In this document: positions 456 through 52,836 of the stretch, in pieces
How positions within the stretch are numbered: the first letter of the stretch is position 1
Layout: each line of letters begins with the position of its first letter
NCBI GenBank assembly: GCA_040954595.2
Contig: CM082588.2
Coordinates: forward strand, 7,920,844-7,984,843
DNA: 64,000 bases
Source: Balanoglossus misakiensis
Lineage: Eukaryota; Animalia; Hemichordata
Direction: 5' to 3'
Position numbers and translations under genes: made by a program
The notes under the pieces: generated by a model
Told to the model about the DNA's origin: nothing
The model's input: only the letters and a program-made list of their open reading frames with translations
Database searches by the model: none

Positions 456-587
456 ATGCTTCCTGTGCTTGGTGCAACTGTAAGAGTGATAATCTCAAGA
501 AGTTTATACGCTGTTGTGCAGTGATGTATTGTGGGAAAGACTGCCAGGAACAACACTGGAGGAAAGGTCACAGAGAAGAATGCAAAG
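456..587 (+). CDS. NLR unit 1 exon 2, zf-MYND cassette
   Basis: Pyrimidine tract then TCAAG| acceptor; CAWC..FIRC..YCGKDCQEQHW..HREEC; donor AAG|GTACAA; 132 nt, phase 1-1. Confidence 0.8.
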
Positions 588-1222
588 GTACAATTGATCC
601 TTTTCTGAACTCCACATGACCCCACGAGATTTCACGTAGCTAAGCAATTTATATGGGAGGACATTCCCCTGGCACAGGGCAAACAAGTAACACATGTCCT
701 ACCATATTCAATGGCACAAACAATTTCCTTTTTTGTTAAACTCTGCACCTATTCTAATTTCTGAGCTACCAACACGTTGCTATAGTAATCAACCAAGTGT
801 CAGGAGATTTCTAAATGAGCAGGAAATCATCATTGTTAAAGTCTGAACCTATATTCTAGTTACATAGCAAGCTAGATAGTATGAAAATATTCACAAACAC
901 CTTTTAGTACATGTAAGAACTTATAAATAAGATACTGAAAATTTCCATGTTTCACGCATAATGTTTGTATTCTCATGTGCTGAGCTGTCTGTCAAAAAGC
1001 TGGGGGTAATCACGACATGACCCTGCCTATATGGAACACAATATGTGGTTCATATACATGTAGTTGTTGGTCACAATACATCTAGTACACCATTTGAAAC
1101 CCCTGACTATATTATACTTAGGTACAATGATGTTTTACAGCTTGTGAAAATAGTAAACTAAACAGCAACTATCTGCAATACAAAAGTCATACTATCAATA
1201 TTATATTGTTTTTTTCTTACAG

Positions 1223-4065
1223 ATACTTCTGCAGGGTTTGAGTGGCTTAAAGACTATCTCAAAGAATTGTACAGCCATGACTTTGACAAGTTCCAACCTC
1301 TGCCATGGAATGAAAACTTCTCACTCCATTTATCTGATGTCTATACCCGACTGAAGATGGGAGAGGTTAATGAAAGGGGTAAGATCATTAAGGACAATGA
1401 AGAAAATGACACTGTAGTTCATGAGAGTGCAATATTTGAAGCAGATCGAAATGGAGTGAGACCACGTAGAATAAGAATTGAAGGACCTCCAGCTATTGGC
1501 AAGTCAATGTTTAGTAGAAAGCTGGCCTACAACTGGGCTTGTGGAAAATTAGAGCAATTTAAATTAGTCTTTCTGTTGGAAATGAGATATATGAGTAAAG
1601 AATCAATCATAGAAACCATATTTGATCAATTACTTCCTGATGATGCAGAAATGTCCAGAGATGAGCTTGACAAGGTTCTGAAAAGGAATGCAGATTCTGT
1701 GCTGTTCCTCTGTGATGGTTTGGATGAAATGTGTAAGGATTTCAAGGAAAGTTCTGATATAAGTCGGATTATTGCAAAGAAATTATTGCCAAGATGTACA
1801 GTAGCTATCACAACCAGGCCCCATGAATGTGACACACAGCTGAAAAACTGTGATTCACATTATCACATAGAGGGCTTCACATGGAGTGATTGTTGGGAAT
1901 ATATCAGGAAGTACTTCAAGCATGAGTCTCAGACATGTGTGAATATGATCAAAAATTTAGAACGAAACCTCCAGTTTAAATGGTTGGATGATTTCCTTAG
2001 TAATCCCTTACATGTTTCATTTCTTTGTGTACTGTGGGAGGATCATCAAGATGGTGACCATTTCCCAACTAGAGTGACAGAGTTGTATTTTGAAGTATTG
2101 CAGTGTATTTTGAAGAGGTATTGTTCCAAGACTGGAGTCAGTCTTGATGAACAGGGAGAAGTACCCGTTGATATCATGGCTGGTGTAAATAAACTGGCTG
2201 CCATTGCTTATAATTATCTGAAACAGGGAAAAATACTCATAAATGAGGTAGATGTGATACCAACATGGCTCTTGTCACTAGGGTTACTTGTGCGTGATTG
2301 CGGTGTATCTCGCACAAAACCAAAGAAAGTTTGTTTCTTCTGTCACAAAACTTGGCTGGAATATTTTGCTGCTTTACATATTGCTGAATGTGTGAAGGAT
2401 ACTGCTTCCTTTGATGAGTTTCAATTTCTATCTGACGATATTATCCGCAGTTTCCAAGTCTTTAAATTTCTGACTGGCACTCTGAAGGAGAAAGCTGGTC
2501 CAGTATTTAAGGAAATTGGGATGGAGATGTGCAAGAATGCAGATGGTTATGACTTTGTGTTTAGAATGAAGAGCTATATAGCTTTCTTACATGAAAGTGT
2601 CAATTATCAAGCATTTTTGAAATTCATAGAACCCATCCTTTATGAATCTAAGTGTATCATTTATAATCCTTTATTTTATTTTATAGCAAGATCTATGGTT
2701 GTCAATTCTATGTCTTCACCATCACCATATTATATTCTAAGTGACGATTTGAATTTTCTTACATTGTATTATGATAGTTACTTGATGATAATCATTGATA
2801 TGCTGAAGTATGAACACTCATGTCAATGTAGACCCAAATTTAATAAAAATCTCTGGTTAGATATCAACAAAATGCAATCATCAGCGATATCCCACTTGGC
2901 AGAGGCACTGGAAAACAATCTTATTTCTCTTGAATGGCTTGTGTTGAATGTGACTTCATCCAGTGGCAAGAATCTGCTTCAGTTGGCAAAAGCTGTCAGA
3001 GAAACCAAAACGGTACAAAACATTCATATCATTGTAGATGATAGGGATAATGTTGTTGACAGCACTCCCAATGAAAAATGTAAGCAAGGCACCTCAAATA
3101 AAGAAACATACTTGACATCACATACTCTAAGAAATCTTATCGATAATGCTGTGAAAAATAAGCATATTGATTGTTTTTCATTGCATACAGTTGACCTGTC
3201 TGACCATCAACGGGAGCATATTGATAACATTCTTCCATATAAGTCATTGAAACAGGCCAGGCACTTTCAAAATATTGTGGAAACCGAAACAGGTTTAAAT
3301 AGTGCATTATTGAAAGTTGCTGATATGCTTGAACACTGTCAATCTACCAATGTTTGTCATTTTGTACTTTTTGATGGTGTCAGATATTCTGCCATTGAGG
3401 GCAGTACTGCAAGAGCTTTGTTAACAGCTGTTCAAAATATCAGCAAATCAATTAAATCTCTTGGCTTGTCAGTCACATCAGAATATGTAAAGATACCTTA
3501 TGTAGTTCCATCTGGATCATTGCCAATATCTGATGTTGTGAATAAGATTTTACATATTTTGATGTCTAACACCACATTAGAGGATCTTAAGTTATTTATA
3601 GAGAATGAAAATGTTGATGCTGTATCGAAGTTTATTCAATGTAATAAGTATGTCAAGTCACTGTCCTTTGCTCTGTATCAGTCCAGAATGAGCATAGACC
3701 ATTTATGTTCAGCTCTCTGTGCTGCTTTGAGTTCCAATACAACTCTGGAAAGCTTTGCGCTGGAGTTTTGTTATGAGTTTGTTAGAGTTTATAGTAACCA
3801 TGAACTTTCCACTGAGTATAAGTATCTTAGTCAATTGATTTTACCAACACATAGTCGATTGTGTGGTGGAAAAACTGCATTGAAGACAATTTCATTTACT
3901 TTTCCATCATTAAGTCCAAAACGCAGGGATGATATTGTCAATGTCATGACCGAGTATTTTAAAGGAAATGTTTCAGGGTCATACCAATACACTGTGAAGC
4001 AGATCATGTCCATTTATATGTACCGGTATATTCACTTTCTTAACGTATCGATCAGTGAACTCTAG
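1223..4065 (+). CDS. NLR unit 1 exon 3, NACHT + winged helix + LRR-like region
   Basis: Acceptor TTTTCTTACAG|; Walker A GPPAIGKS, Walker B VLFLCDGLDE, sensor-1 ITTRP, NPL, FCHKTWLEYFAA; LRR-like segments such as SNTTLESFAL. Confidence 0.92.
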
Positions 4066-4471
4066 AGAATGCTGAATGCCACATTTGCATAAGATGCATT
4101 CTGCTATATAGGGGAAACTCCATGAAAAATTGTAAACTTTAAAATTTTTTTTACATACACTTAATTTAAGGTACAGATATAAAATATACCAGGTAACAGA
4201 CTATACTATAGATATCAATGCTTGCACAGTTAGACAAACTGTCAAGGGATTTTCAACATATTGTATCCAGATGGAAATTTAATCAAATTACTAAGGACAT
4301 AAAGTGAACAAATAAACAAAATTTGATTTGTTCACTTTATAACAGTACTGGACTCAAATATCTACCACGAAGTGTTTTTCTTGACCAGAACTATGACAAT
4401 TTCAAAAGGCTTATGAGTTCCACAGATTTACGGGTATTATTGAATATTTGCAAGTATGTTTATAAAGCTAT

Positions 4472-5750
4472 GGCTGTGAGAAGAACAGCCACTTATAGGA
4501 TGAATAATATTGTTCAACTTTGTTTGTATTTGTGTAGTCAGCATTCACTTTGTATTTGTGTGATTGTATTACTTTATTTGAGAACTGGATGTTCTCCTTG
4601 CATTTGGACCTGAGGTCTTGAAATGCAATAAATTACTTTTATTATTACTGGCTGTGAGAAGAGCAGCCACTTGCCACTCATAGAGTGTATAATATTGTTC
4701 AACTTTCTTTGTATTTGTGTAGTCAGCATTTCACTTTGTATTTGTGTGATGTATTACTTTATTTGAAAACTGGATGTTCTCCTTGCATTTGGACCTGAGG
4801 TCTTGAAATGCAATAAATTACTTTTATTATTACTGGCTGTGAGAAGAGCAGCCACTTGCCACTCATAAAGTGTATAATTTTGTTCAACTTTCTCTGTATT
4901 TGTGTAGTCAGCATTTCACTTTGTATTTGTGTGATGTATTACTTTATTTGAGAACTGGATGTTCTCCTTGCATTTGGACCTGAGGTCTTGAAATGCAATA
5001 AATTACTATTATTATTACTGGCTGTGAGAAGAGCAGCCACTTGCCACTCATAGAGTGTATAATATTGTTCAACTTTCTTTGTATTTGTGTAGTCAGCATT
5101 TCATTTTGTATTTGTGTGATGTATTACTTTATTTGAGAAGTGGATGTTCTCCTTGCATTTGGACCTGAGGTCTTGAAATGCAATAAATTACTATTATTAT
5201 TACTGGCTGTGAGAAGAGCAGCCACTTGCCACTCATAGAGTGTATAATATTGTTCAACTTTCTTTGTATTTGTGTAGTCAGCATTCACTTTGTATTTGTG
5301 TGATGTATTACTTTATTTGAGAACTGGATGTTCTCCTTGCATTTGGACCTGAGGTCTTGAAATGCAATTAATTACTATTATTATTACTGGCTGTGAGAAG
5401 AGCAGCCACTTGCCACTCATAGAGTGTATAATATTGTTCAACTTTCTTTGTATTTGTGTAGTCTGCATTCACTTTGTATTTGTGTGATGTATTACTTTAT
5501 TTGAGAACTGGATGTTCTCCTTGCATTTGGACCTGAGGTCTTCAAACGCAATAAATTACTATTATTATTACTGGCTGTGAGAAGAGCAGCCACTTGCCAC
5601 TCATAGAGTGTATAATATTGTTCAACTTTCTTTGTATTTGTGTAGTCAGCATTTCATTTTGTATTTGTACGATGTATTACTTTATTTGAGAACTGGATGT
5701 TCTCCTTGCATTTGGACCTGAGGTCTTGAAAGGCAATAAATTACTTATTA
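4472..5750 (+). repeat. ~185-bp tandem repeat in 3' flank of unit 1 (~7 copies)
   Basis: GGCTGTGAGAAG recurs at ~4472, 4650, 4835, 5020, 5204, 5389, 5573; most units contain AATAAA. Confidence 0.93.
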
Positions 5751-7966: not shown

Positions 7967-9113
7967 ATGGCGACCGGTGGTGCATTTTTAACTACAGCCG
8001 AGAAGGTGAATCACGCTAGACTTTGTCGACTACTTATCGACGGTGGATCTAATGCGGTGAGATGTGTATTTGACAGCAAGATTCCACCTAATGTGCTTGC
8101 AAAAACTCTTAACAAGCATAAGAAGTCGTTAGAGAAACTACGAGTGTTGTATAAAGGACCTAAACCGGGTCCAAAGGTTATCAGTGATGGTCAGTGGGAT
8201 CTGTTATACCCAACCCAACCCAACCTTGTCAAGTCTGAAGACTTCGACATTACATTGCTCACAGTTTTATTACGCAATATCTGTGGCCTTCGAGTGACAC
8301 AGTCCTCCCCTGGTGTTGAAGCTGATGTGGCCCGAATAAAAGACTTCAGGAATAAACTTCAACACATGCCGGGCACAGCTGTCCCTGACAGCGAATTTCA
8401 ATCTTTCTGGGATGACATTAGTAAAGTATTGGTACGTCTTGGCGCTAAGCAGGGAGATATCGATCAGTTGAAGACTGCGAGTATGGACCTTGCTGAGACA
8501 GACAAATACGAACAAACTTTAAAGGACTGGCAAGAATCCGACAAAAAGTTCCTACAGCGTATAGAAGAGAAAATTGGCGATCAAACTCGTCAGCTTGGTC
8601 AGATATCAGAGACACAGAGTGACCATAGCAGTACTTTGGCTGATATCGAACAGAACCAACGGGAGAACCAACAAGAAACAACTCAACATCTTGGTCAGAT
8701 ATCAGAGACACAGAGTGACCATAGCAGTACTTTGGCTGATATCGAACAGAACCAACGGGAGAACCAACAAGAAACGACTCAACATCTGGGTCAGATATCA
8801 GAGAGACAGAGTGACCATAGCAGTACTTTGGCTGATATCGAACAGAAACAACGGGAGAACCAACAAGAAACGACTCAACATCTTGGTCAGATATCAGAGA
8901 CACAGAGTGGCCATAGCAGTACTTTGGCTGATATCGAACAGAACCAACAAGAAACGACTCAACATCTTGGTCAGATATCAGAGACACAGAGTGGCCATAG
9001 CAGTACTTTGGCTGATATCGAACAGAACCAACAAGAAACGATTCAACATCTGGTTGACATCAAAGAAGGCCTCAAGACTTCACATACCAGTGAGTCAAGA
9101 ACATGTGTTCCAG
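7967..9113 (+). CDS. NLR unit 2 exon 1, DZIP3-type HEPN + 5 coiled-coil repeats
   Basis: ATG in AAAGATGG; NHARLCRLLIDGG, FDITLLTVLLRNICGL, RNKLQH; donor CCAG|GTAATA. Confidence 0.88.
8597..9052 (+). repeat. 96/84-bp coding VNTR, pattern LLLSS
   Basis: GQISETQ..HSSTLADIEQN(QREN)QQETTQHL units. Confidence 0.95.
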
Positions 9114-9864: not shown

Positions 9865-9996
9865 ATGCTTCCTGTGCTTGGTGCAACTGTAAGAGTGATA
9901 ATCTCAAGAAGTGTACACGCTGTTGTGCAGTGATGTATTGTGGGAAAGACTGCCAGGAACAACACTGGAGGAAAGGTCACAGAGAAGAATGCAAAG
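9865..9996 (+). CDS. NLR unit 2 exon 2, zf-MYND with all eight canonical ligands
   Basis: CAWC..CTRC..YCGKDC..HREEC; AG/GT flanks, 132 nt. Confidence 0.82.
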
Positions 9997-10622: not shown

Positions 10623-13459
10623 ATACTTCTGCAGAGTTTGAGTGGCTTAAAGACTATCTCAAAGAATTGTACAGCCATGACTTTGACAAGTTCCAACCGT
10701 TGCCATGGAATGAAAACTTCTCACTCCATTTATCTGATGTCTATACCCGACTGAAGATGGTAGAGGTTGATGAAAGGGGTAAGATCATTGAGGACAATAA
10801 AGCAAAGAACACTGTAGTTCATGAAAGTGCAATATTTGAAGCAGATCGAAATGGAGTGAGACCACGTAGAATAAGAATTAAAGGACCTCCAGCTATTGGC
10901 AAGTCAATGTTTAGTAGAAAGCTGGCCTACAACTGGGCTTGTGGCGAATTAGAGCAATTTAAATTAGTCTTTCTGTTGGAAATGAGATATATGAGTCAAG
11001 AATCAATCATAGAAACCATATTTGATCAATTACTTCCTGATGATGCAGAAATTTCCAGAGATGAGCTTGACAAGGTTCTGAAAAGGAATGCAGATTCTGT
11101 GCTGTTCCTCTGTGATGGTTTGGATGAAATGTGTAAGGATTTCAAGGAAAGCCTTGATATTAGTCGGATTATTGCAAAGAAATTATTGCCAAGATGTACA
11201 GTAGCTATCACAACCAGGCCCCATGAATGTGACACACAGTTGAAAAACTGTGATTCACATTATTACATACAGGGCTTCACAAAGAGTGATTGTAGGGAAT
11301 ATATCATGAAGTACTTCAAGCATGAGTCTGAGACTGGTAAGAATTTGATCGCAAATTTAGAACAAAACCTTGAGTTTGAATGGTTGGATGATTTTCTTAG
11401 TAATCCCTTACATGTTTCATTTCTTTGTGTACTGTGGGAGGATCATCAAGATGGTGACCATTTCCCAACTAGAGTGACAGAGTTGTATTTTGAAGTATTG
11501 AAGTGTATTTTGAAGAGGTATTGTTCCAAGACTGGAGTCAGTCTTGATGAACAGGGAGAAGTACCCGTTGATATCATGGCTGATGTAAATAAACTGACTG
11601 CCATTGCTTATAATTATCTGAAACAGGGCAAAATACTCATAAATGAGGTAGATGTGATGCCAACATGGCTCTTGTCACTAGGGTTACTTGTGCGTGATTG
11701 CGGTGTATCTCGCACAAAACCAAAGAAAGTTTGTTTCTTCTGTCACAAAACTTGGCTGGAATATTTTGCTGCTTTACATATTGCTGAATGTGTGAAGGAC
11801 ACTGCTTCCTTTGATGAGTTTCAATTTCTATCTGACGACATTCACCGCAATTTCCAAGTCTTTGTATTTCTGACTGGCACTCTGAAGGAGAAAGCTGGTC
11901 CAGTATTTAAGGAAATTGGGATGGAGACGTGCAAGTCTGCAGATGATGCTGGCTTGGACAGCTATATAGCTTTCTTACATGAAAGTGTCAATTATGAAGC
12001 ATTTTTGAAATTCATAAAACCCATCCTTTATCAATTTAAGTGTTTCATTTGTGATCCTTTATTTTTTAGACCAAGACCTGTGGTTGTCAATTCTTTGTCT
12101 TCACCATCACCATATTTTCTAAGTGACGATTTGGATTTTCATACATTGTATTATGAAGATAGTTACTCGATGATAATCATTGATATGCTGAAGTATAAAC
12201 ACTCACATGAAAGTATACCCAAATTTCATAACAATCTTGAGATACATATCAACAATATGCAATCATCAGAGATTTCCTATTTAGTAGAGGCACTGGAGAA
12301 GAATCTTATTTCTCTTGAATAGTTTGTGTTGAATGTGACTCCATCCAGTGACAAGAATCTTCTTCAGTTGGCAAAAGCTATCAGAGAAACCAAAGCAGTA
12401 CAAAACATTCATATCATTGTAGGTGATGATAGGGACAATGTTGTTGACAGCACTCCCAATGAAAAATGTAAGCAAGGCACCTCAATTAAAGAAACAGATT
12501 TGACATCACGCACTTTAAGAAACCTTATCGAAAATGCTGAGAAAAATGAGCATATTGATTGTTTGTCATTGCATACATTTGACCGGTCTGACCATCAACG
12601 GGAGAATATTGATAACATTGTTCCATATAATTCATTGAAACAGACCAGGCACTTTCATAATATTGTGGAAACCGAAACAGGTGTAAATAGCGTATTACTG
12701 AAAGTTGCTGATATGCTTGAACACTGTCAATCTACCAAGGTTTGTCACGTGGTACTTGATGATAGTGTCAGATATTATGCCATTGAGGGCAGTACTGCAA
12801 GAGCTTTGTCAAAAGCTGTTCAAAATATCAGCAAAACAATTAATTCTCTTAGCTTGCTTGTCACATCAGAATTTTTAGATATACCGGAATATTTTGATGT
12901 TCAATCTGAATTTTTGCCTATATGTCATGTTGTGAATGAGATTTTACACATTTTGATGTCTAACACCACATTAGAGGATCTTAAGTTATTTATAGAGAAT
13001 GAAAATGTTGATGCTGTATTGAAGTTTATTCAATGTAATAAGTATGTCAAGTCACTGTCCTTTGCTCTGTATCAGTCTACAGTGAGTATAGACCATTTAT
13101 GTTCAGCTCTCTGTGCTGCTTTGAGTTCCAATACAACTCTGGAAAGCTTTGCGCTGCATTTGTGTGATGAGTCAGATGCAATGTATAGTAACACTGAACA
13201 TTCCACTGAGCATAAGTATATAAGTAAATTCATTTTACCAACACATAGATTATTGTGTGATGGAAAAACTGCATTGAAGACGATTTCATTTACTTTTCAA
13301 TCATCAAGTCCAGAACGCAGGGATGATATTGTCAATGTCATGACCGAGCATTTTAAAGGAAATGTTTCAGGGTCATACAAATACACTGTGAAGAGGCTGA
13401 TCAGGTGGGATCTTCAATGGTATATTCACGTTCTGGAAGTATCCATCAGTGGGCCCTAG
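10623..13459 (+). pseudogene. NLR unit 2 exon 3 (NACHT + LRR-like) interrupted by in-frame TAG at 12320-12322
   Basis: Paralogs have TGG (LEW) at this codon; frame stays open downstream to 13459. Confidence 0.85.
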
Positions 13460-20581: not shown

Positions 20582-22328
20582 ATGGCGACTGGTGGTGCCT
20601 TTATAACCACACCCGAAAAGGTGAATCACGCTAAACTTTGTCGACTACTTATTGACGGCGGATCTAAAGCGGTGAGATGTGTATTTGACAGCAAGATTCC
20701 ACCTAATCTGCTTGCGAAAACTCTTAACAAGCATAAGGCATCGTTAGAGAAACTACGAATGTCGTATAGAGGACCTAATCCAGGTCAAAAGGTTATCAGT
20801 GATGGTCAGTGGAATCTGTTATACCCAACCCAACCCAACCTTGTCAAGTCTCAATATTTCGACATTACATTGCTCACAGTTTTATTACGGAATATCTGTG
20901 GCCTTCGACATCCAAGAGATAGAGTGTGGACACATCCCTTCCCTGGTGATCTCCGTGTTGAAGCTGATGTGGCCCGAATAAGAGAGTTCAGGAATAGACT
21001 TCAACACATGACGGGCACAGCTGTCCCTGAGAGCGAATTTCAATCTTTCTGGGATGACATTAGTAAAGTACTGGTACGTCTTGGCGCTAAGCAGGGAGAT
21101 ATCAGTCAGTTGAAGACTGCGAGTATGGGCCTTGCAGAGACAGACAAATACGAACAAACTTTAAAGGACTGGGAAGAATCCGACATGGTGCTGGAAAAGT
21201 TCCTACAGCGTATGGAAGAGAAAATTGGTGATCAAACTCAACATCTTGGTCAGATATCAGAGACACAGACTGGCCATAGCAGTACTTTGGCTGATATCGA
21301 ACAGAACCAACGGGAGAACCAACAAGAAACGACTCAACATCTTGGTCAGATATCAGAGACACAGACTGGCCATAGCAGTACTTTGGCTGATATCGAACAG
21401 AACCAACGGGAGAACCAACAAGAAACGACTCAACATCTTGGTCAGATATCAGAGACACAGACTGGCCATAGCAGTACTTTGGCTGATATCGAACAGAACC
21501 AACGGGAGAACCAACAAGAAACGACTCAACATCTTGGTCAGATATCAGTGACACAGACTGGCCATAGCAGTACTTTGGCTGATATCGAACAGAACCAACA
21601 AGAAACGACTCAACATCTTGGTCAGATATCAGAGACACAGAGTGGCCATAGCAGTACTTTGGCTGATATCGAACAGAACCAACGGGAGAACCAACAAGAA
21701 ACGACTCAACATCTTGGTCAGATATCAGTGACACAGACTGGCCATAGCAGTACTTTGGCTGATATCGAACAGAACCAACGGGAGAACCAACAAGAAACGA
21801 CTCAACATCTTGGTCAGATATCAGAGACACAGAGTGGCCATAGCAGTACTTTGGCTGATATCGAACAGAACCAACAAGAAACGACTCAACATCTTGGTCA
21901 GATATCAGAGACACAGAGTGGCCATAGCAGTACTTTGGCTGATATCGAACAGAACCAACAAGAAACGACTCAACATCTTGGTCAGATATCAGAGACACAG
22001 ACTGGCCATAGCAGTACTTTGGCTGATATCGAACAGAACCAACGGGAGAACCAACAAGAAACGACTCAACATCTTGGTCAGATATCAGAGACACAGACTG
22101 GCCATAGCAGTACTTTGGCTGATATCGAACAGAACCAACGGGAGAACCAACAAGAAACGACTCAACATCTTGGTCAGATATCAGTGACACAGACTGGCCA
22201 TAGCAGTATTTTGGCTGATATCAAACAGAACCAACGGGAGAACCAACAAGAAATGATTCAACATCTGGTTGACATCAAAGAAGGCCCCAAGACTTCACAT
22301 ACCAGTGAGTCAAGAACATGTGTTCCAG
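20582..22328 (+). CDS. NLR unit 3 exon 1, HEPN + 11 coiled-coil repeats
   Basis: RNRLQH motif; donor CCAG|GTAATA. Confidence 0.9.
21248..22267 (+). repeat. 96/84-bp coding VNTR, pattern LLLSLLSSLLL
   Basis: Counted from translation. Confidence 0.95.
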
Positions 22329-23077: not shown

Positions 23078-23209
23078 ATGCTTCCTGTGCTTGGTGCAAC
23101 TGTAAGAGTGATAATCTCAAGAAGTTTATACGCTGTTGTGCACTGATGTATTGTGGGAAAGACTGCCAGAAACAACACTGGATGAAAGGTCACAGAGAAG
23201 AATGCAAAG
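23078..23209 (+). CDS. NLR unit 3 exon 2, zf-MYND
   Basis: As unit 1; splice sites conserved. Confidence 0.8.
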
Positions 23210-29962: not shown

Positions 29963-31433
29963 ATGGCGACTTGTGGTGCATTTTTAACTACAGCCGAGAA
30001 GGTGAATCACGCTAGACTTTGTCGACTACTTATCGACGGCGGATCTAAAGCGGTGAGATGTATATTTGACAAGAGAATTCCATCTAATCTTACACTTGCG
30101 GACACACTGAAGAACCATAAAGTTTCGTTACAGAGACTTCGTCCAAATGTTATCAGTGATGGTCAGTGGGATCTGTTATACCCAACCCAACCCAACCTTG
30201 TCAAGTCTCAATATTTCGACATTACATTGCTCACAGTTTTATTACGGAATATCTGTGGCCTTCGACATCCAAGAGATAGAGTATGGACACATCATCCCTC
30301 CCCTGGTGATCTCCGTGTTGAAGCTGATGTGACCCGAATAAGAGAGTTCAGGAATAGACTTCAACACATGACGGGCACAGCTGTCCCTGAGAGCGAATTT
30401 CAATCTTTCTGGGATGACATTAGTAAAGTATTGGTACGTCTTGGCGCTAAGCAGGGAGATATCGATCAGTTAAAGACTGCGAGTATGGACCTTGCCGAGA
30501 CAGACAAATACAAACAAACTTTAAAGCACTGGGAAGAATCTGACATGGTGCTGGAAAAGTTCCTACAGCGTATGGAAGAGAAAATTGGCGATCAAACTCG
30601 TCAGCTTGGTCAGATATCAGAGACACAGAGTGACCATAGCAGTACTTTGGCTGATATCGAACAGAACCAACAAGAAACGACTCAACATCTTGGTCAGATA
30701 TCAGAGACACAGACTGGCCATAGCAGTACTTTGGCTGATATCGAACAGAACCAACGGGAGAACCAACAAGAAACAACTCAACATCTTGGTCAGATATCAG
30801 AGACACAGAGTGGCCATAGCAGTACTTTGGCTGATATTGAACAGAACCAACGGGAGAACCAACAAGAAACGACTCAACATCTTGGTCAGATATCAGAGAC
30901 ACAGAGTGGCCATAGCAGTACTTTGGCTGATATTGAACAGAACCAACGGGAGAACCAACAAGAAACAACTCAACATCTTGGTCAGATATCAGAGACACAG
31001 AGTGGCCATAGCAGTACTTTGGCTGATATTGAACAGAACCAACGGGAGAACCAACAAGAAACGACTCAACATCTTGGTCAGATATCAGAGACACAGAGTG
31101 GCCATAGCAGTACTTTGGCTGATATGCAACAGAACCAACGGGAGAACCAACAAGAAACAACTCAACATCTTGGTCAGATATCAGAGACACAGAGTGACCA
31201 TAGCAGTACTTTGGCTGATATCGAACAGAACCAACGGGAGAACCAACAAGAAACAACTCAACATCTTGGTCAGATATCAGAGACACAGAGTGGCCATAGC
31301 AGTACTTTGGCTGATATCGAACAGAACCAACAAGAATCAACTCAACATCTTGGTCAGATATCAGAGACACTGGTTGACATTAAAGAAGGCCTCAAGACTT
31401 CACATACCAGTGAGTCAAGAACATGTGTTCCAG
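29963..31433 (+). CDS. NLR unit 4 exon 1, HEPN + 8 coiled-coil repeats
   Basis: RNRLQH motif; donor CCAG|GTAATA. Confidence 0.9.
30608..31351 (+). repeat. 96/84-bp coding VNTR, pattern SLLLLLLS
   Basis: Counted from translation. Confidence 0.95.
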
Positions 31434-32194: not shown

Positions 32195-32326
32195 ATGTTT
32201 CCTGTGCTTGGTGCAACTGTAAGAGTGATAATCTCAAGAAGTTTATACGCTGTTGTGCAGTGATGTATTGTGGGAAAGACTGTCAGAAACAACACTGGAT
32301 GAAAGGTCACAGAGAAGAATGCAAAG
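32195..32326 (+). CDS. NLR unit 4 exon 2, zf-MYND
   Basis: As unit 1. Confidence 0.8.
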
Positions 32327-32942: not shown

Positions 32943-35788
32943 ATACTTCTGCAGAGTTTGAGTGGCTTAAAGACTATCTCAAAGGATTGTACAGCCATGA
33001 CTTTGACAAGTTCCAACCATTGCCATGGAATGAAAACTTCTCACTCCATTTATCTGATGTCTATACCCGACTGAAGATGGTAGAGGTTGATGAAAGGGGT
33101 AAGATCATTGAGGACAATGAAGAAAATGACACTGTAGTTCATGAGAGTGCAATATTTGAAGCAGATAGAAAAGGAGTGAGACCACGTAGAATAAGAATTG
33201 AAGGACCTCCAGCTATTGGCAAGTCAATGTTTTCTAGAAAGCTAGCCTACAACTGGGCTTGTGGAAATTTAGAGCAATTTAAATTAGTCTTTCTGTTGGA
33301 AATAAGATATATGAGTAAAGAATCAATCATAGAAACCATATTTGATCAATTACTTCCTGATGATGCAGAAATTTCCAGAGATGAGCTTGACAAGGTTCTG
33401 AAAAGGAATGCAGATTCTGTGCTGTTCCTCTGTGATGGTTTGGATGAAATGTGTAAGGATTTCAAGGAAAGTTCCGATATAAGTCGGATTATTGCAAAGA
33501 AATTATTGCCAAGATGTACAGTAGCTATCACAACCAGGCCCCATGAATGTGACACACAGCTGAAAAACTGTGATTCACATTATCACATACAGGGCTTCAC
33601 AGAGAGTGATTGTAGGGAATATATCAGGAAGTACTTCAAGAATAAGTCTGAGACTGGTGAGAATTTGATCACAAATTTAGAACAAAACCTTGAGTTTGAA
33701 TGGTTGGATGATTTCCTTAGTAATCCCTTACATGTTTCATTTCTTTGTGTACTGTGGGAGGATCATCAAGATGGTGACCATTTCCCAACTAGAGTGACAG
33801 AGTTGTATTTTGAAGTATTGCAGTGTATTTTGAAGAGGTATTGTTCCAAGACTGGAGTCAGTCTTGATGAACAAGGAGAAGTACCCGTTGATATCATGGC
33901 TGATGTAAATAAACTGACTGCCATTGCTTATAATTATCTGAAACAGGGAAATATACTCATAAATGAGGTAGATGTGATGCCATCATGGCTCTTGTCACTA
34001 GGGTTACTTGTGCGTGATTGCGGTGTATCTCGCACAAAACCAAAGAAAGTTTGTTTCTTTTGTCACAAAACTTGGCTGGAATATTTTGCTGCTTTACATA
34101 TTGCTGAATGTGTGAAGGATACTGCTTCCTTTGATGAGTTTCAATTTTTATCTGACGACATTCACCGCAATTTCCAAGTCTTTGTATTTCTGACTGGCAC
34201 TCTGAAGGAGAAAGCTGGTCCAGTATTTAAGGAAGTTGGGATGGAGACGTGCAAGTCTGCAGGTGATGCTGACTTAATAGGCAAAATGAACCGCTATATA
34301 GATTTCTTACATGAAAGTGTCAATTATCAAGCATTTTTGAAATTCATAGAACCCATCCTTTATCAACTTAAGTGTTTCTTTTGTGATCCTTTAGTTTATT
34401 TAAGAGTAAGACCTTCTATGGTTGTCAGTTCTTTGTCTTCACCATCACCATTTATTCTAAGTGACGATTTGAATTTGCGTACATTGCTTTTTAAATATAG
34501 TTACTTGATGATAATCATTGATATACTGAAGTATGAACACTCAGGTGAAAGGAGACCCAAATTTGGTAAAATTCTTGAGATAGATATCAAAAATATGCAA
34601 TCATCAGCGATATCCTATTTGGCGGAGGAACTGGAGAAGAATCTTATTTCTCTTGAATGGCTTGCGTTGTATGTGACTCCATCCAGTGACAAGAATCTGC
34701 TTCAGTTGGCAAAAGCTATCAGAGAAACCAAAGCAGTACAAAACATTTATATCAATCTACAGATTGATAGGGATAATGTTGTTGACAGCACTCCCAATGA
34801 AAGATGTAAGCAAGGCACCTCAAATAAAGAAACAGATTTGACATCACGCACTTTAAGAAACCTTATCGAAAATGCTGTGAAAAATAAGCATATTGATTGT
34901 TTGTCATTGCATACAGTTGACCAGTCTGACAATCAACGGGAGGTAATTGATAACATAGTTCCATTTAAGTCATTCGAACAGGCCAGGCACTTTCATAATA
35001 TTGTGGAAACCAGAACAGGTTTAAATAGTGCATTATTGAAAGTTGCTGATATGCTTGAACACTGTCAATCTACCAAGGTTTGTCATTTTGTATTTTTTGA
35101 GGATTTCACATATCCTGCCATTGAGGGTAGTACTGCAAGAGCTTTGTTAAAAGCTGTTCAAAATATCAGCAAAACAATAAAATCTCTTAGATTGATTGTC
35201 ACATCAGAATATGTAAATTTACCTTATGTAGTTCCACCTGGATCATTGCCAATATCTCATGTTGTGAATGAGATTTTACATATTTTGATGTCTTACACCA
35301 CATTAGAGGATCTTAAGTTATTTATAGAGAATGAAAATGTTGTTGCTGTATCGAAGTTTATTCAATGTAATAAGTCTGTCAAGTCACTGTCCTTTGCTCT
35401 GTATCAGCCCATAATGAGCATAGACCATTTATGTTCAGCTCTCTGTGCTGCTTTGAGTTCCAATACAACTCTGGAAAGCTTTGCGCTGGAACTTTGTGAC
35501 ATATGTATGCCATCTGTCAACCCTGAACCTTCCACTGAGCATAAGTATATTAGTCAATTGATTATACCAACACATAGGTTATTGTGTGGTGGAATAACCG
35601 CATTGAAGACGATCTCATTTACTTTTCAATCATCACGTCCAGAACGCAGTGATTATATTGTCAATGTCATGACCGAGTATTTTAAAGGAAACATTTCAGG
35701 GTCATACCAATACACTGTGAAGAGTTTGATGAGGTTCGGTAATATAATATTTATTCACTTTCTGGAAGTATCGATCAGTGAACCCTAG
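32943..35788 (+). CDS. NLR unit 4 exon 3, NACHT + LRR-like (spliced product ~1482 aa)
   Basis: Acceptor TTTTTCTACAG|; intact frame. Confidence 0.92.
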
Positions 35789-42660: not shown

Positions 42661-43897
42661 ATGGCGACCGGTGGTGCATTTTTAACTACAGCCGAGAAGG
42701 TGAATCACGCTAGACTTTGTCGACTACTTATCGACGGCGGATCTAAAGCGGTGAGATGTGTATTTGACAACAAGATTCCACCTAATGTGCTTGCAAAAAC
42801 TCTTAACAAGCATAAGAAGTCGTTAGAGAAACTACGAGTGTTGTATAAAGGACCTAATCCGGGTCCAAAGGTTATCAGTGATGGTCAGTGGGATCTGTTA
42901 TACCCAACCCAACCCAACCTTGTCAAGTCTGAAGACTTCGACATTACATTGCTCACAGTTTTATTACGCAATATCTGTGGCCTTCGAGTGACACAGTCCT
43001 CCCCTGGTGATCTCCGTGTTGAAGCTGATGTGGCCCGAATAAAAGACTTCAGGAATAAACTTCAACACATGCCGGGCACAGCTGTCCCTGACAGCGAATT
43101 TCAATCTTTCTGGGATGACATTAGTAAAGTATTGGTACGTCTTGGCGCTAAGCAGGGAGATATCGATCAGTTGAAGACTGCGAGTATGGACCTTGCTGAG
43201 ACAGACAAATACGAACAAACTTTAAAGCACTGGGTGCTGGAAGAGAAAGTTGATAAGATATCAGAGACACAGAGTGGCCATAGCAGTACTTTGGCTGATA
43301 TCGAACAGAACCAACGGGAGAACCAACAAGAAACGACTCAACATCTTGATAAGATATCAGAGACACAGAGTGGCCATAGCAGTACTTTGGCTGATATCGA
43401 ACAGAATCAACGGGAGAACCAACAAGAAACGACTCAACATCTTGGTCAGATATCAGAGAGACAGAGTGGCCATAGCAGTACTTTGGCTGATATCGAACAG
43501 AACCAACGGGAGAACCAACAAGAAACGACTCAACATCTTGATCAGATATCAGAGACACAGAGTGGCCATAGCAGTACTTTGGCTGATATTGAACAGAACC
43601 ATCGGGAGAACCAACATGAAACGACTCAACATCTTGGTCAGATATCAGAGACACAGAGTGGCCATAGCAGTACTTTGGCTGATATCGAACAGAACCAACA
43701 AGAAACGACTCAACATCTTGGTCAGATATCAGAGACACAGAGTGGCCATAGCAGTACTTTGGCTGATATGCAACAGAATCAACGGGAGAACCAACAAGAA
43801 ACGACTCAACATCTTGGTCAGATATCAGAGACACTGGTTAACATCAAAGAAGGCCTCAAGACTTCACATACCAGTGAGTCAAGAACATGTGTTCCAG
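42661..43897 (+). CDS. NLR unit 5 exon 1, HEPN + 6 coiled-coil repeats
   Basis: RNKLQH motif; donor CCAG|GTAATA. Confidence 0.9.
43252..43815 (+). repeat. 96/84-bp coding VNTR, pattern LLLLSL
   Basis: Counted from translation. Confidence 0.95.
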
Positions 43898-44036: not shown

Positions 44037-44168
44037 ATGCTTCCTGTGCTTGGTGCAACTGTAAGAGTGATAATCTCAAGAAGTTTATACGCTGTTGTGC
44101 AGTGATGTATTGTGGGAAAGATTGCCAGAAACAACACTGGATGAAAGGTCACAGAGAAGAATGCAAAG
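44037..44168 (+). CDS. NLR unit 5 exon 2, zf-MYND
   Basis: As unit 1; preceded by the short (~140 nt) intron form. Confidence 0.8.
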
Positions 44169-44804: not shown

Positions 44805-47638
44805 ATACTTCTGCAGGGTTTGAGTGGCTTAAAGACTATCTCAAAGGATTGTACAGCCATGACTTTGACAAGTTCCAACCGTTACCATGGAATGAAAACT
44901 TCTCGCTTCATTTATCTGATGTGTATACCCGACTGAAGATGGTAGAGGTTGATGAAAGGGGTAAGATCATTGAGGACAATGAAGAAAATGACACTGTTGT
45001 TCATGAAAGTGCAATATTTGAAGCAGATCGAAATGGAGTGAGACCACGTAGAATAAGAATTGAAGGACCTCCAGCTATTGGCAAGTCAATGTTTTCACGA
45101 AAGCTGGCCTACAACTGGGCTTGTGGCAAATTAGAGCAATTTAAATTGGTCTTTCTGTTGGAAATGAGATATATGAGTCAAGAATCAATCAGAGAAACCA
45201 TATTTGATCAATTACTTCCTGATGATGCAGAAATTTCCAGAGATGAGCTTGACAAGGTTCTGAAAAGGAATGCAGATTCTGTGCTGTTCCTCTGTGATGG
45301 TTTGGATGAAATGTGTAAGGATTTCAAGGAAAGTTCCGATATTAGTCAGATTATTGCAAAGAAATTATTGCCAAGATGTACAGTAGCTATCACAACCAGG
45401 CCCCATGAATGTGACACACAGCTGAAAAACTGTGATTCACATTATCACATACAGGGCTTCACATGGAGTGATTGTTGGGAATATATCAGGAAGTATTTCA
45501 AGAATAAGTGTGAGACTGGTGAAAATTTGATCTCAAATTTAGAACAAAACCTCCAGTTTGCATGGTTGGATGATTTCCTTAGTAATCCCTTACATGTTTC
45601 ATTTCTTTGTGTACTGTGGGAGGATCATCAAGATGGTGACCATTTCCCAACTAGAGTGACAGAGTTGTATTTTGAAGTATTGCAGTGTATTTTGAAGAGG
45701 TATTGTTGCAAGACTGGAGTCAGTCTTGATGAACAAGGAGAAGTACCCGATGATATCATGGCTGATGTAAATAAACTGGCTGCCATTGCTTATAATTATC
45801 TGAAACAGGGAAAAATACTCATAAATGAGGTAGATGTGATGCCAACATGGCTCTTGTCACTAGGGTTACTTGTGCGTGATTGCGGTGTATCTCGCACAAA
45901 ACCAAAGAAAGTTTGTTTCTTCTGTCACAAAACTTGGCTGGAATATTTTGCTGCTTTACATATTGCTGAATGTGTGAAGGATACTGCTTCCTTTGATGAG
46001 TTTCAATTTTTATCTGACGACATTGACCGCAATTTCTTGGTATTTCTGACTGGCACTCTGAAGGAGAAAGCTGGTCCAGTATTTAAGGGGATTGGGATGG
46101 AGACGTGCAAGTCTGTAGGTGATGCTGACTTAACAGGCAAAATGTACCGCTATATAGCTTTCTTACATGAAAGTGTCAATTATCAAGCATTTTTCAAATT
46201 CATAGAACCCATCCTTTATGAATTTACGCGTTTCCTTAGTACTCCTTTCTATTTAATTGCAAGAACTTCTACGGTTGTCAATTCTTTGCCTTCACCATCA
46301 CCATTTATTCTAAGTGACGATTTGAATTTTCGTACATTGTATTATAAAGATAGTTACTTGATGATAATCATTGATATGCTGAAGTATAAACACTCAGGTG
46401 AAAGTAGAACCAAATTTGGTAAAATTCTTGATATAGATATAAACCAAATGCAATCATCAGAGATTTCCTATTTGGCAGAGGCACTGGAGAAGAATCTCAT
46501 TTGTCTTGAATGGCTTGTGTTGAATGTGGCTCCATCCAGTGACAAGAATCTGCTTCAGTTGGCAAAAGCTATCAGAGAAACCAAAGCGGTACAAAACATT
46601 CATATCCTTGTAGATGATGATGTTGTTGACAGCATTCCCAATGAAAAATGTAAGCAAGGCACCTCAAATAAAGAAACAGATTTGACATCACGCACTTTAA
46701 GAAACCTTATCGAAAATGCTGTGAAAAATAATCATATTGATTGTTTGTCATTGCATACAATTGACCTACATGTATCTGACCATTCACGGGAGAATATTGA
46801 TAACATTGTTCCATATAAGTCATTGAAACAGGCCAGGCACTTTCATAATGTTGTGGAAACCGAAACAAGTTTAAATAGCGTATTATTGAAAGTTGCTGAT
46901 ATGCTTGAACACTGTCAATCTACCAAGGTTTGTCATGTGATACTTGTTGATAGTGTCACATATTCTGCCATTGAGGGCAGTACTGCAAGAGCTTTGTTAA
47001 AAGCTGTTCAAAATATCAGCAAAACAATTACATCTCTTTGCTTGTTTGTCGCAATCGAAAATGTAAAGATACCTTGTGTAGTTCCATCTGGATCATTGCC
47101 AATATCTCATGTTGTGAATGAGATTGTAAACATTTTGATATCTAACACCACATTAGAGGATCTTATGTTATTTATAGAGAATGACAATGTTGATGCTGTA
47201 TCGAAGTTTATTCAATGTAATAAGTATGTCAAGTCACTGTCCTTTGCTCTGTATCAGTCCAGAATGAGCATAGACCATTTATATTCAGCTCTCTGTGCTG
47301 CTTTGAGTTCCAATACAACTCTGGAAAGCTTTGCGCTGCATTTTTGTGAGATTTGTATGCCATCTGTCAACCCTGAACTTTCCACTGAGCATAAGTATAT
47401 TAGTCAATTCATATTACCAACACATAGGTTATTGTGTGGTGGAATAACCGCATTGAAGACGATCTCATTTACTTTTCCATCATCAAGTCCAAAAGTCACG
47501 GTTGATATTGTCAATGTCATGACCGAGTATTTTAAAGGAAATGTTTCAGGGTCATACCAATACACTGTGAAGAGGCAGATCGGGTTAGGTTATCAAATGT
47601 ATTTTCACGTTCTGAAAGTATCCATCAGTGAACCCTAG
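44805..47638 (+). CDS. NLR unit 5 exon 3, NACHT + LRR-like (spliced product ~1400 aa)
   Basis: Intact frame; NACHT motifs conserved. Confidence 0.92.
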
Positions 47639-48050: not shown

Positions 48051-48410
48051 GGCTGTGAGAAGAACAGCCACTTATAGGATGAATAATATTGTTCAACTTT
48101 CTTTGTATTTGTGTAGTCAGCATTCACTTTGTATTTGTGTGATGTATTACTTTATTTGAGAACTGGATGTTCTCCTTGCATTTGGACCTGAGGTCTTGAA
48201 ACCAGGAAATTACTATAATTATTACTGGCTGTGAGAAGAGCAGCCACTTGCCACTCATAGAGTGTATAATATTGTTCAACTTTCTTTGTATTTGTGTAGT
48301 CAGCATTCAATTTGTATTTGTGTGATGTATTAATTTATTTGAGAACTGGAAGTTCTCCTTGCATTTGGACCTGAGGTCTTCAAACGCAATAAATTACTAT
48401 TATTATTACT
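48051..48410 (+). repeat. ~185-bp 3' repeat, 2 copies
   Basis: Same unit. Confidence 0.88.
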
Positions 48411-50271: not shown

Positions 50272-50282
50272 GGGGATTCCCC
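50272..50282 (+). promoter_or_regulatory. kappaB site upstream of unit 6
   Basis: GGGGATTCCCC. Confidence 0.5.
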
Positions 50283-50743: not shown

Positions 50744-51926
50744 ATGGCGACCGGTGGTGCATTTTTAACTACAGCCGAGAAGGTGAATCACGCTAGACTT
50801 TGTCGACTACTTATCGACGGTGGATCTAAAGCGGTGAGATGTGTATTTGACAACAATATTCCACCTAATGTGCTTGCAAACACCCTTAACAAGCATAAGG
50901 TGTCGTTAGAGAAACTACGAATGTCGTATAAAGGACCTAATCCAGGTCAAAAGGTTATCAGTGATGGTCAGTGGGATCTGTTATACCCAACCCAACCCAA
51001 CCATGTCAAGTCTCAATATTTCGACATTACATTGCTCACAGTTTTATTACGGAATATCTGTGGCCTTCGACATCCAAGAGATAGAGTATGGACACATCCC
51101 TCCCCTGGTGATCTCCGTGTTGAAGCTGATGTGGCCCGAATAAGAGAGTTCAGGAATAGACTACAACACATGACGGGCACAGCTGTCCCTGACAGCCAAT
51201 TTCAATCTTTCTGGGATGACATTAGTAAAGTATTGGTACGTCTTGGCGCTAAGCAGGGAGATATCGATCAGTTGAAGACTGCGAGTATGGACCTTGCTGA
51301 GACAGACAAATACGAACAAACTTTAAAGCACTGGGAAGAATCTGACATGGTGCTGGAAAAGTTCCTACAGCGTATGGAAGAGAAAATTGGTGATCAAACT
51401 CGTCAGCTTGGTCAGATATCAGAGACACAGAGTGGCCATAGCAGTACTTTGGCTGATATCGAACAGAACCAACGGGAGAACCAACAAGAAACGACTCAAC
51501 ATCTGGGTCAGATATCAGAGACACAGAGTGGCCATAGCAGTACTTTGGCTGATATCGAACAGAACCAACGGGAGAACCAACAAGAAACGACTCAACATCT
51601 TGGTCAGATATCAGAGACACAGAGTGACCATAGCAGTACTTTGGCGGATATCGAACAGAACCAACAAGAAACGACTCAACATCTTGGTCAGATATCAGAG
51701 ACACAGAGTGACCATAGCAGTACTTTGACTGATATCGAACAGAACCAACGGGAGAACCAACAAGAAACGACTCAACATCTTGGTCAGATATCAGAGACAC
51801 AGAGTGGCCATAGCAGTACTTTGGCTGATATCGAACAGAACCAACAAGAAACGATTCAACATCTGGTTGACATCAAAGAAGGCCTCAAGACTTCACATAC
51901 CAGTGAGTCAAGAACATGTGTTCCAG
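50744..51926 (+). CDS. NLR unit 6 exon 1, HEPN + 5 coiled-coil repeats
   Basis: RNRLQH motif; donor CCAG|GTAATA. Confidence 0.9.
51410..51865 (+). repeat. 96/84-bp coding VNTR, pattern LLSLS
   Basis: Counted from translation. Confidence 0.95.
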
Positions 51927-52704
51927 GTAATAATTAAGATGGAGAAGTTGAATGCATTTCTATGGCTGAAATCTACGACATTATAGCTTTTTTTATAACT
52001 TGCATAATTTTTGGTCAAACTTAATTTTTCCGTCAATTGGTCTCATAATTTATATGTGCAGATAATATTCTTATTCCAATTTGGTCAGCTGGCTTGGGCT
52101 GACCCAGGGCCAATCTGGGGTAGCTTGTTTCTCATCTCAAGTCTTACATCATAATCATACATTGCATAGACCATCAGAAGCAAGTTTTATACTTATTTTT
52201 GCAATATATGAGAATGGGAATAATCAGGAAATCAAGATAATTACAATCCCACTTTTCTGGGGGAGTCCAAAATCATGTAAGGTGGTGACATGTTGGTTTT
52301 TTGCTGCCAGTTATCTCAAAGGGACAAAGATTCTCTCTCACTGTCCCTTTTCCATTAATAATGTTTGATACATGACACTGTTTATGTTATTCTACATGTA
52401 GATACATGTGTATATAGTGAATCAACGTTCGACTGCACACAACTTCCATCCCACTTGTATGATATGAGAGCAACAAATCTCACCAAAATGGTCGAATGTT
52501 GATTCACTATATATTCAAATGTAGAATAACATAAACAGTGTTTTGTATCAAACATAATTAATGGAAAAAGGGCAGCGAGAAAGAGACTTTATGTCCCTTT
52601 AATGGATTGGCGACATCATGGTTGCTTAGTTTTAAAAAAAAAGAATCTGTTGTACACCACCATTAAAAATAACTTTTTCTATAAATTCTCTCCTTTATCT
52701 CAAG

Positions 52705-52836
52705 ATACTTCCTGTGCTTGGTGCAACTGTAAGAGTGATAATCTCAAGAAGTTTATACGCTGTTGTGCAGTGATGTATTGTGGGAAAGACTGTCAGAAAC
52801 AACACTGGATGAAAGGTCACAGAGAAGAATGCAAAG
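52705..52836 (+). CDS. NLR unit 6 exon 2, zf-MYND
   Basis: As unit 1. Confidence 0.8.

Follow-up and report, generated by a model that had tools for sequence, protein, structure and literature searches.

A phase-symmetric zf-MYND exon, probably acquired by exon shuffling, in a hemichordate array of HEPN-stalk-NACHT genes

The gene array

The 64-kb stretch of Balanoglossus misakiensis DNA analysed here (the window) contains a tandem array of six HEPN-stalk-NACHT-repeat genes, all on the plus strand and each with one zf-MYND segment (Table 1). At the level of the predicted gene models, an anatomy of three exon modules (HEPN-stalk, MYND, and NACHT-solenoid) is confirmed. The HEPN_DZIP3 domain is recognized by Pfam with scores of 137 and 127 bits, and its RN-x3-H motif, which agrees with the Rx4-6H pattern of HEPN domains, is intact in all five complete exons scanned. 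The NACHT domain scores 96.6 bits, and its Walker A and B motifs are intact in 6/6 genes. In the C-terminal part, LRRs gave no Pfam match, and structure prediction indicates a solenoid of alternating strands and helices; the predicted structure of the whole NACHT exon matches NLRC4, NLRP14, NLRP3, and NOD2 (E down to 5e-24, TM 0.3-0.5). Pfam also matched the stalk weakly to ZMYND8_CC (E 0.06), which was taken as chance.

Table 1. Features of the array, with positions in the window
Feature	Positions	Strand	Remarks
Gene 1 HEPN-stalk exon, 3' part	1..312	+	Exon truncated by window start
3' splice signal of MYND exon, 39 nt (gene 1 coordinates)	417..455	+	Branch-like TAAC, pyrimidine tract, AAG; identical in 6/6
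Gene 1 zf-MYND exon	456..587	+	132 nt, phase 1-1; third ligand Cys to Phe; mosaic of two sequence types
Gene 1 NACHT and C-terminal solenoid exon	1223..4065	+	Open
Gene 2 HEPN_DZIP3 and repeat stalk exon	7967..9113	+	
Gene 2 zf-MYND exon	9865..9996	+	Sole copy with all eight canonical ligands
Gene 2 NACHT exon	10623..13459	+	In-frame TAG at 12320
Gene 3 HEPN and stalk exon	20582..22328	+	96-nt unit, 11 repeats
Gene 3 zf-MYND exon	23078..23209	+	Third ligand Cys to Phe
Gene 3 NACHT exon	23816..26670	+	Open; spliced model 1577 aa
Gene 4 HEPN and stalk exon	29963..31433	+	
Gene 4 zf-MYND exon	32195..32326	+	Third ligand Cys to Phe
Gene 4 NACHT exon	32943..35788	+	Open; spliced model 1482 aa
Gene 5 HEPN and stalk exon	42661..43897	+	
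Gene 5 zf-MYND exon	44037..44168	+	Third ligand Cys to Phe
Gene 5 NACHT exon	44805..47638	+	Open
Gene 6 HEPN and stalk exon	50744..51926	+	HEPN_DZIP3 137 bits; RN-x3-H motif
Gene 6 zf-MYND exon	52705..52836	+	Third ligand Cys to Phe
Gene 6 NACHT exon	53486..56319	+	Open; spliced model 1382 aa; predicted NLR fold, C-terminal alpha/beta solenoid
Gene 7 HEPN and stalk exon	62470..64000	+	Truncated by window end; MYND exon would fall beyond window

The MYND exon and its splice signals

The HEPN-stalk exon ends in phase 1 in all five complete copies, with lengths of 1147, 1747, 1471, 1237, and 1183 nt (3n+1), and the NACHT exon continues in the same phase. As the 132-nt exon in between has phase 1 on either side, its inclusion and its skipping would both preserve the frame, and the original prediction of a symmetric phase 1-1 exon that can be skipped in frame holds for 6/6 copies, all with AG/GT ends. 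The claim that the exon matches the domain boundaries was also borne out, as the zf-MYND profile (1-39 of 39) covers residues 3-42 of the 43 encoded. All five copies scanned pass the Pfam zf-MYND family (PF01753) with 35.5-39.9 bits at a cut-off of 22.7, and the copy at 44037 is assigned by alignment only. The MYND exon is free of indels, whereas the introns on its two sides have 16 and 22 distinct gaps. Judging from the sequence, the segment is probably spliced into transcripts.

In all six copies, an AAG acceptor precedes the exon, and the donor AAG|GTACAA follows it. Compared with AG|GTRAGT, this donor has a perfect exonic AAG and mismatches only at +4 to +6, and the upstream donor of the HEPN-stalk exon, CAG|GTAATA, also lacks +5G and +6T. 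A crude count of consensus matches that uses no species model gives 6/9 for the MYND donor and 7/9 for the upstream one. As ordinary donors of the AG//GUNNN type, which covers AAG|GTACAA, constitute a major class (PMC11732430), and as the two donors of the gene are that similar, skipping is hardly to be expected from the donor. The site had been described as a non-consensus donor (G|GTACAA), which is correct with respect to the mismatches at +4 to +6, but the class is common and +5G is missing also upstream.

On the other side of the exon, the invariant 39-nt run before the acceptor is the longest invariant intronic stretch (the next has 27 nt; naive p=0.0015), and the acceptor region has an AG-free zone of 59-63 nt with 80% pyrimidines. 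AAG acceptors are generally weaker than CAG or TAG acceptors. Two copies carry a 0.6-kb deletion that spares both splice sites. Long inverted repeats bracketing the exon were not found in the three copies examined, which have just one 12-nt pair (in gene 2).

Zinc ligands and peptide-binding residues

MYND fingers canonically have eight zinc ligands (C4-C2HC) in cross-brace order (PMC3555993). Such a complete set is found in one of the six copies, and this canonical finger belongs to a gene with a premature stop (gene 2). In the other five copies, which include every gene without an internal stop, the third ligand is changed from Cys to Phe, an aspect that was absent from the original sequence-only prediction. 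Among 368 natural motif matches, this position is Cys in 357, and in the other 11 the Cys either is found one residue later (9) or is absent (2). The Phe-variant copies keep the remaining seven ligands, and spare Cys residues adjoin the lost one. A frameshift was ruled out as the origin of the variant; there are two substitutions instead, Cys to Phe and Thr to Ile, which are adjacent to each other. In BS69 and PHD2, loss of zinc ligands abolishes binding (PMC3555993, PMC6916684). In the five variant copies, the second zinc site has probably either been rebuilt by means of an adjoining spare Cys or become weaker; a single-sequence fold of the variant (pLDDT 59.5) was uninformative.

The peptide-binding face of BS69 has a conserved Tyr, Gln, and Trp (Y540/Q546/W550; PMC4742278), and the equivalent pocket residues, mapped by their spacing to the ligands, are kept in 6/6 copies. 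In the spliced model, there is an Asp at the junction, two residues after the last Cys, and this Asp is likely the counterpart of BS69 Arg560. BS69/ZMYND11 has the succession of a helical stalk and a MYND finger as well as the Tyr/Gln/Trp pocket in common with the array genes, but it is a nuclear chromatin reader and not an NLR, and the array MYND lacks a basic residue where Arg560 would likely align and does not reach the cut-off of the ZMYND11/8 Pfam model (PF24324; 13 bits vs 27). An internal PxLxP ligand for autoinhibition was considered and rejected, as there was one match in one copy only.

Relatives and the origin of the exon

Invertebrate HEPN_DZIP3-NACHT NLR-like proteins, known from the pearl oyster (PMC9646362), Ptychodera (P0021), and corals, share the N-terminal HEPN_DZIP3 with RN-x3-H, the NACHT domain, the C-terminal repeats, and the tandem arrangement, but the array genes differ by a long stalk of 28/32-residue repeats and the MYND exon between HEPN and NACHT. 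The HEPN domain is 52% identical to that of P0021, whereas the NACHT of P0021 is only 29% identical. The NACHT exon is closest to hemichordate DED-NACHT proteins (P0001-P0015), with the likeness starting approximately at the exon start; local alignments give 31-46% identity to these proteins, and the hemichordate NACHT matches, mostly of this type, have 37-46% as compared to the 29% of P0021. In P0001-P0015, a DED, an OTU-DED, or a low-complexity stretch replaces HEPN-stalk-MYND, and in 12 of the 15 hemichordate matches Pfam recognizes a DED in the slot before NACHT, which in many ends near the junction.

A MYND domain was found in none of 86 fetched HEPN/NACHT relatives, the annotation of which could miss a small exon, and in none of 66 HEPN matches, and neither NACHT nor HEPN was found in the best 150 of 798 MYND matches in a representative library. 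The best single-finger match among these 150 is the ankyrin-MYND protein XP_077977699 (P0201) of the hemichordate Glandiceps talaboti, with 60% identity over 48 codons, starting at the Asp of the 5' junction and ending two codons beyond the 3' junction, and thus over the exon length. Ankyrin-MYND proteins lack NACHT and HEPN and have canonical ligands, and similar clusters occur in fungi and diatoms. The search for a donor MYND gene hence leads to a hemichordate ankyrin-MYND protein, but by a small margin (score 166 vs 157 for the next MYND motif of the top 150 representative matches). Remnants of the P0201 flanks were not detected in either intron above the level of shuffled sequences (27-90 of 100 score as high), and a word-index search of longer proteins with the 43-aa finger yielded no candidate, which is weak evidence.

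Exon shuffling, as originally proposed, is supported by the lack of MYND in the 86 relatives, by the DED that mostly occupies the slot, and by the junction-to-junction match, and the MYND exon was likely shuffled from a host gene of the ankyrin-MYND type into a phase-1 intron before the NACHT exon. As HEPN is nearest to one hemichordate NLR, NACHT to DED-NACHT proteins, and MYND to an ankyrin-MYND protein, the gene appears to be a chimera assembled at phase-1 junctions. It is a clear and seemingly recent example of an animal NLR put together from exon modules, three in number, that differ in origin, and for the captured MYND a class of candidate donors can be named. No report of a MYND domain in an NLR was found in the literature searched, and such an architecture could be listed in the supplementary domain tables of invertebrate NLR surveys or in bioRxiv supplements; one supplement file of PMC8662601 contains no MYND, and het-Va of Podospora is described as a SET-MYND protein and not as an NLR fusion.

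Variation between the copies

It is mainly in the C-terminal solenoid, and not in the MYND domain, that the paralogs differ. The C-terminal part has amino-acid changes at 384/1241 sites as compared to 7/109 in MYND (p=2e-9), and the solenoid has an excess of nonsynonymous over synonymous changes (p=0.002; pN/pS 1.2-1.4), whereas MYND is similar to the NACHT core (61/767, p=0.70). The MYND exon has fewer variable sites than intron 2 (9/132 vs 90/585, p=0.008), but there is no difference to the nearest 90-130 intronic nt (22/213, p=0.31-0.33), and purifying selection is not shown by the ratio of nonsynonymous (7/109) to synonymous changes (2/20; p=0.63), with 7/9 changes altering amino acids. 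Because a purifying signal is missing and the adjacent intron is equally conserved, the low variation of MYND may also result from gene conversion or recent duplication. Across the MYND exon, gene 1 combines the two sequence types as a mosaic, which points to exchange between copies.

Possible roles of the MYND domain

As canonical and altered finger forms are present in one array, the fate of the captured domain (adaptor, decoy, or passenger) is directly testable. The preferred reading of the sequence data, with a probability of roughly 0.45, is that the shuffled in-frame MYND is included in most transcripts and serves as a conserved adaptor for the docking of peptides, and not as the pathogen sensor. 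The diversifying C-terminal solenoid would then sense the ligand, NACHT would oligomerise, and the coiled-coil-like stalk would gather the HEPN domains to an RNase that cuts RNA, while MYND, in the slot that is occupied by the DED in relatives, may bind a host partner of the Pro-x-Leu type, such as a chaperone, an inhibitor, or a localisation factor. MYND fingers can recruit HSP90 co-chaperones via PxLE (PMC6916684).

It is rather doubtful that the domain is a decaying passenger, i.e. a phase-symmetric insertion that is tolerated and at most a spacer, the Cys-to-Phe form of which was spread by duplication and gene conversion; this would be an ordinary instance of modular turnover within a cluster of invertebrate NLR genes. 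The ligand loss in 5/6 copies, rare in natural fingers (2/368), is in line with a passenger, and so are the predominance of amino-acid-altering changes, the exon conservation that does not exceed that of the adjacent intron, and the exchange seen in gene 1, but stops and indels are absent from every MYND copy, the 7/109 changes are few as compared to the 90/585 of intron 2 (p=0.011), the acceptor region is invariant, neither the pocket residues nor any of the seven other ligands has been lost, and spare Cys residues adjoin the missing one. An integrated decoy is unlikely. In that case, MYND would mimic a pathogen-targeted host MYND, and the binding would pull or cross-link the stalk-MYND and thereby activate the NLR and the HEPN RNase, which would mean that the principle of integrated domains, known from plants, applies also to an animal receptor with RNase output. 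An exogenous host-type domain, absent from the relatives examined, is indeed found here in an NLR, and the order of stalk and MYND resembles the coiled-coil-MYND dimer of BS69, which binds EBNA2 and E1A (PMC4742278; PMC12839526). Also the Cys-to-Phe and Thr-to-Ile changes, which probably align to the peptide-contact strand of BS69, could reflect a specificity shift, and a decoy for a conserved target need not diversify. However, few parts vary as little as MYND, and it is the C-terminus that has the excess of amino-acid changes, the nearest match is an ankyrin-MYND protein and not BS69, the cut-off of the ZMYND11/8 model is missed, and viral binding is described as particular to BS69, whose Arg560 is needed for E1A/EBNA2 (PMC3555993) and likely corresponds to the Asp here. 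Plant NLRs with integrated domains likewise contain an exogenous host domain fused via intron-level recombination (PMC5819176, PMC12118082), but the array proteins have an animal type of NACHT and an enzymatic effector of their own, and a decoy function is only putative. The bait reading that had been proposed originally is weakened, as the conservation of MYND equals that of the NACHT core and it is the C-terminal solenoid that diversifies. In integrated decoys, the inserted domain is fast-changing in some cases but not in all, and here it is not the fast-changing part.

Improbable to a similar degree is a regulated cassette exon that gives two functional isoforms with different partner binding or activation thresholds, which would be compatible with the other readings. 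Skipping in frame is possible in 6/6 copies, and in human multi-isoform genes 1-1 exons make up 21.3% of alternative but 11.1% of constitutive exons (PMC3632108, Table 3), from which a prior of about one in three can be calculated (own arithmetic); young exons are often alternative (PMC3632108), and the AAG acceptor and the lack of donor matches at +4 to +6 fit as well. Against this, the donor is of a major class and has nearly as many consensus matches as the upstream one, the acceptor tract is long, AG-free, pyrimidine-rich, and invariant, and the three copies examined have no long inverted repeat but the 12-nt pair. It is very unlikely that all is combined, with an ankyrin-MYND finger as plant-style decoy that has a retuned strand and a rebuilt zinc site, detects pathogens, triggers the HEPN RNase, and is switched by skipping. 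Highly improbable is that the segment is no internal exon at all and either is never spliced in or is read through into intron 2, resulting in a HEPN-stalk-MYND protein without NACHT. A read-through would meet a stop after 10 codons in 6/6 copies, and the donor GT may be a co-opted Gly codon, as the P0201 match extends two codons beyond, but only 2/6 copies have canonical poly(A) hexamers in intron 2, and these at unrelated places, the introns have no further similarity to the P0201 flanks, and the phases fit on both sides.

Architecture of the gene array

On its + strand the window carries six genes head to tail and the first part of a seventh, and each gene has three coding parts: an exon for HEPN_DZIP3 and a stalk, a 132-nt segment, and an exon of about 2.85 kb for NACHT and the C-terminal region. 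The stalk consists of proline-free 84/96-nt repeats (28 and 32 residues, period near 3.55 residues), with a copy number of about 5 to 11; its length differs from gene to gene, and by its sequence it is a variable-length spacer from HEPN to MYND. The 15 best among 20 NACHT hits are hemichordate proteins, and a model of the NACHT exon (AlphaFold2, 16 sequences, pLDDT 75), in which an alternating strand/helix solenoid is predicted beyond about residue 540, matches NLRC4, NLRP14, NLRP3 and NOD2 in structure comparison. The tandem arrangement is shared with pearl oyster HEPN-NACHT proteins, for which RN-type Rx4H motifs have been described (PMC9646362).

Across 3.5 kb, gene 7 shares 98.3% identity with gene 3; this may reflect a very recent duplication or conversion, or the assembly may contain an allelic copy. 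A 185-nt tandem repeat, possibly part of the 3' UTR, immediately follows the stop codon in five genes, and between genes there are a 237-nt tandem repeat and a recurring CpG-rich element, the 129-codon frame of which has no Pfam match (best E 0.17).

Positions of features in the window
Feature	Positions	Strand	Remarks
Stalk repeats	8594-9051, 21236-22266, 30663-31331, 43256-43834, 51407-51866, 63124-64000	+	96- and 84-nt units
185-nt tandem repeat	4488-5754, 27094-27621, 36211-36555, 48067-48410, 56734-57455		2 to 7 copies
237-nt tandem repeat	17367-18469		4.7 copies, between genes 2 and 3
CpG-rich intergenic element	16162-16548, 39878-40264, 59976-60362		open frame
Gene 3/gene 7 near-identity	18574-22112, 60462-64000		
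MITE-like hairpin	52318-52600, ~9493-9756		intron 1
Seven-base exon starts, gene 6	52705-52711, 53486-53492		MYND exon, NACHT exon
Premature stop, gene 2	12320-12322		TAG

The MYND exon and its origin

The 132-nt segment is flanked by AG (5') and GT (3') in 6/6 genes; the donor upstream of it and the acceptor downstream are both in phase 1, and the reading frame is kept whether it is included or skipped. All five scanned copies pass the zf-MYND cut-off across the whole profile, and the six aligned copies have no indels in the exon and many in its introns. The segment is presumably spliced into the mRNA, and phases, ends, full-profile matches and the indel-free exon bear out the original prediction of a symmetric, frame-preserving zf-MYND exon; this exon is a real feature of the array, while its skipping and a bait function are putative. 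The first seven bases of the MYND exon match those of the NACHT exon almost completely, and in gene 6 fully, either by chance or as a trace of the insertion.

None of the 86 retrieved relatives (NACHT or HEPN) contains a MYND domain, and the literature searched, including one paper supplement, yielded no MYND-containing NLR. In 12 of the 15 hemichordate hits a DED precedes NACHT, with an OTU in front in two of them, and similarity to the relatives starts near the NACHT exon start. The nearest HEPN among longer proteins (52%) belongs to a Ptychodera HEPN_DZIP3-NACHT protein, the attached NACHT of which is just 29% identical. Among 1.84 billion representative sequences, 798 matched the MYND finger; neither NACHT nor HEPN occurs in the 150 best of these, and the top single finger within those 150 belongs to P0201, a Glandiceps talaboti (Hemichordata) protein of the ankyrin-MYND type. 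Its 60% identity extends across 48 codons, starting at the Asp of the 5' junction and reaching two codons beyond the 3' junction. The Asp and Gly at the exon ends would fit phase-1 introns in the donor gene. P0201 is a hemichordate candidate for the donor MYND gene, but the margin is small (score 166, runner-up 157); comparable ankyrin-MYND clusters occur also in fungi and diatoms, and the array introns contain no further donor remnants. As the relatives examined are MYND-free, the kinship of HEPN and NACHT is mismatched and the finger matches ankyrin-MYND proteins, it is likely that the gene is a three-way chimera put together at phase-1 junctions. Another enzyme domain added before a related NACHT is seen in OTU-DED-NACHT proteins of Ptychodera and Glandiceps (P0004, P0005).

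Zinc ligands

Only gene 2 has all eight zinc ligands, and in the other five copies the third-ligand Cys is replaced by Phe, with Ile adjoining. Gene 2 is also the only one of the six with a premature stop, early in the solenoid, beyond which the frame is open for 378 codons; it may have become a pseudogene recently, or it may encode a receptor without most of its sensor. Of 368 motif matches in natural fingers, 357 have Cys at the third-ligand position, 9 have a shortened Cys-x-Cys and 2 have no Cys there, and in BS69 and PHD2 ligand loss abolished binding (PMC3555993, PMC6916684). All copies keep unchanged the remaining seven ligands, the pocket residues Tyr, Gln and Trp (described in PMC4742278) and two spare Cys, one of them immediately following the fourth ligand, and a rebuilt zinc site is therefore possible in the Phe copies. 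Gene 1 has the Phe-Ile pair of genes 3-6 and downstream sites in common with gene 2, and this mosaic points to exchange between copies within the exon.

Function and splicing

HEPN RNases work as dimers. Binding of a ligand at the solenoid would free NACHT to oligomerise, and the proline-free stalk would then bring the HEPN domains together. The preferred reading of the MYND domain (probability about 0.45) is a docking adaptor that is normally included and binds a host partner, because the domain lies where the relatives have their DED and its peptide face is kept. That the exon is instead decaying cargo is rather unlikely: in its favour, the third ligand lost in five copies is rarely missing in natural fingers, and the exon, more conserved than intron 2 (between the MYND and NACHT exons) overall (p about 0.01), does not differ from its immediate flanks (p about 0.3), but the invariance of the other seven ligands, spare Cys and pocket speaks against decay. 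The original prediction saw a pathogen bait, like the integrated domains of plant NLRs. By simple counts in six paralogs, which do not account for gene conversion, the C-terminal 540 codons have pN 0.11-0.12 and pN/pS 1.2-1.4, whereas MYND (pN 0.025, pN/pS about 0.6, N vs S uninformative at p=0.63) resembles the NACHT core. The C-terminal excess of amino-acid change (p=0.002) and its difference from MYND (p=2e-9) are both significant, but may be overstated if the variable region is misaligned. Given this excess, the solenoid is likely the variable sensing surface, and a decoy role of MYND is unlikely. The comparison with BS69 (ZMYND11), a binder of viral proteins, turned out to be architectural only, as the finger reaches 13 bits with the ZMYND11/8 Pfam model (cut-off 27) and has Asp at the likely equivalent of Arg560, which is described as required for E1A binding (PMC3555993).

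Functional, regulated skipping would be compatible with any of these readings, and the 1-1 phase favours it, this class making up 21.3% of alternative and 11.1% of constitutive human exons (PMC3632108 Table 3), from which our own arithmetic gives a prior of about one in three. The donor, earlier taken as non-consensus and thus as a pointer to skipping, probably does not sustain this claim by itself: AAG/GTACAA has the complete exonic consensus and belongs to one of the two main classes of donor, AG//GUNNN (as described in PMC11732430), the upstream donor likewise lacks +5G and +6T, and a crude count gives 6/9 consensus matches against 7/9 upstream. The acceptor is AAG, but the 59-63 nt ahead of it are free of AG and 80% pyrimidine, and the 39 nt directly 5' of it, invariant in 6/6 copies, are the longest unchanged intronic run. 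Functional, regulated skipping is judged unlikely. In intron 1, between the HEPN-stalk and MYND exons, a 0.6-kb deletion in genes 1 and 5 has left donor and acceptor sites intact. This intron also carries a MITE-like hairpin, about 280 nt long and with 82-nt arms that are 84% complementary; by alignment genes 3 and 4 have it too, and genes 1 and 5 lack it owing to that deletion.
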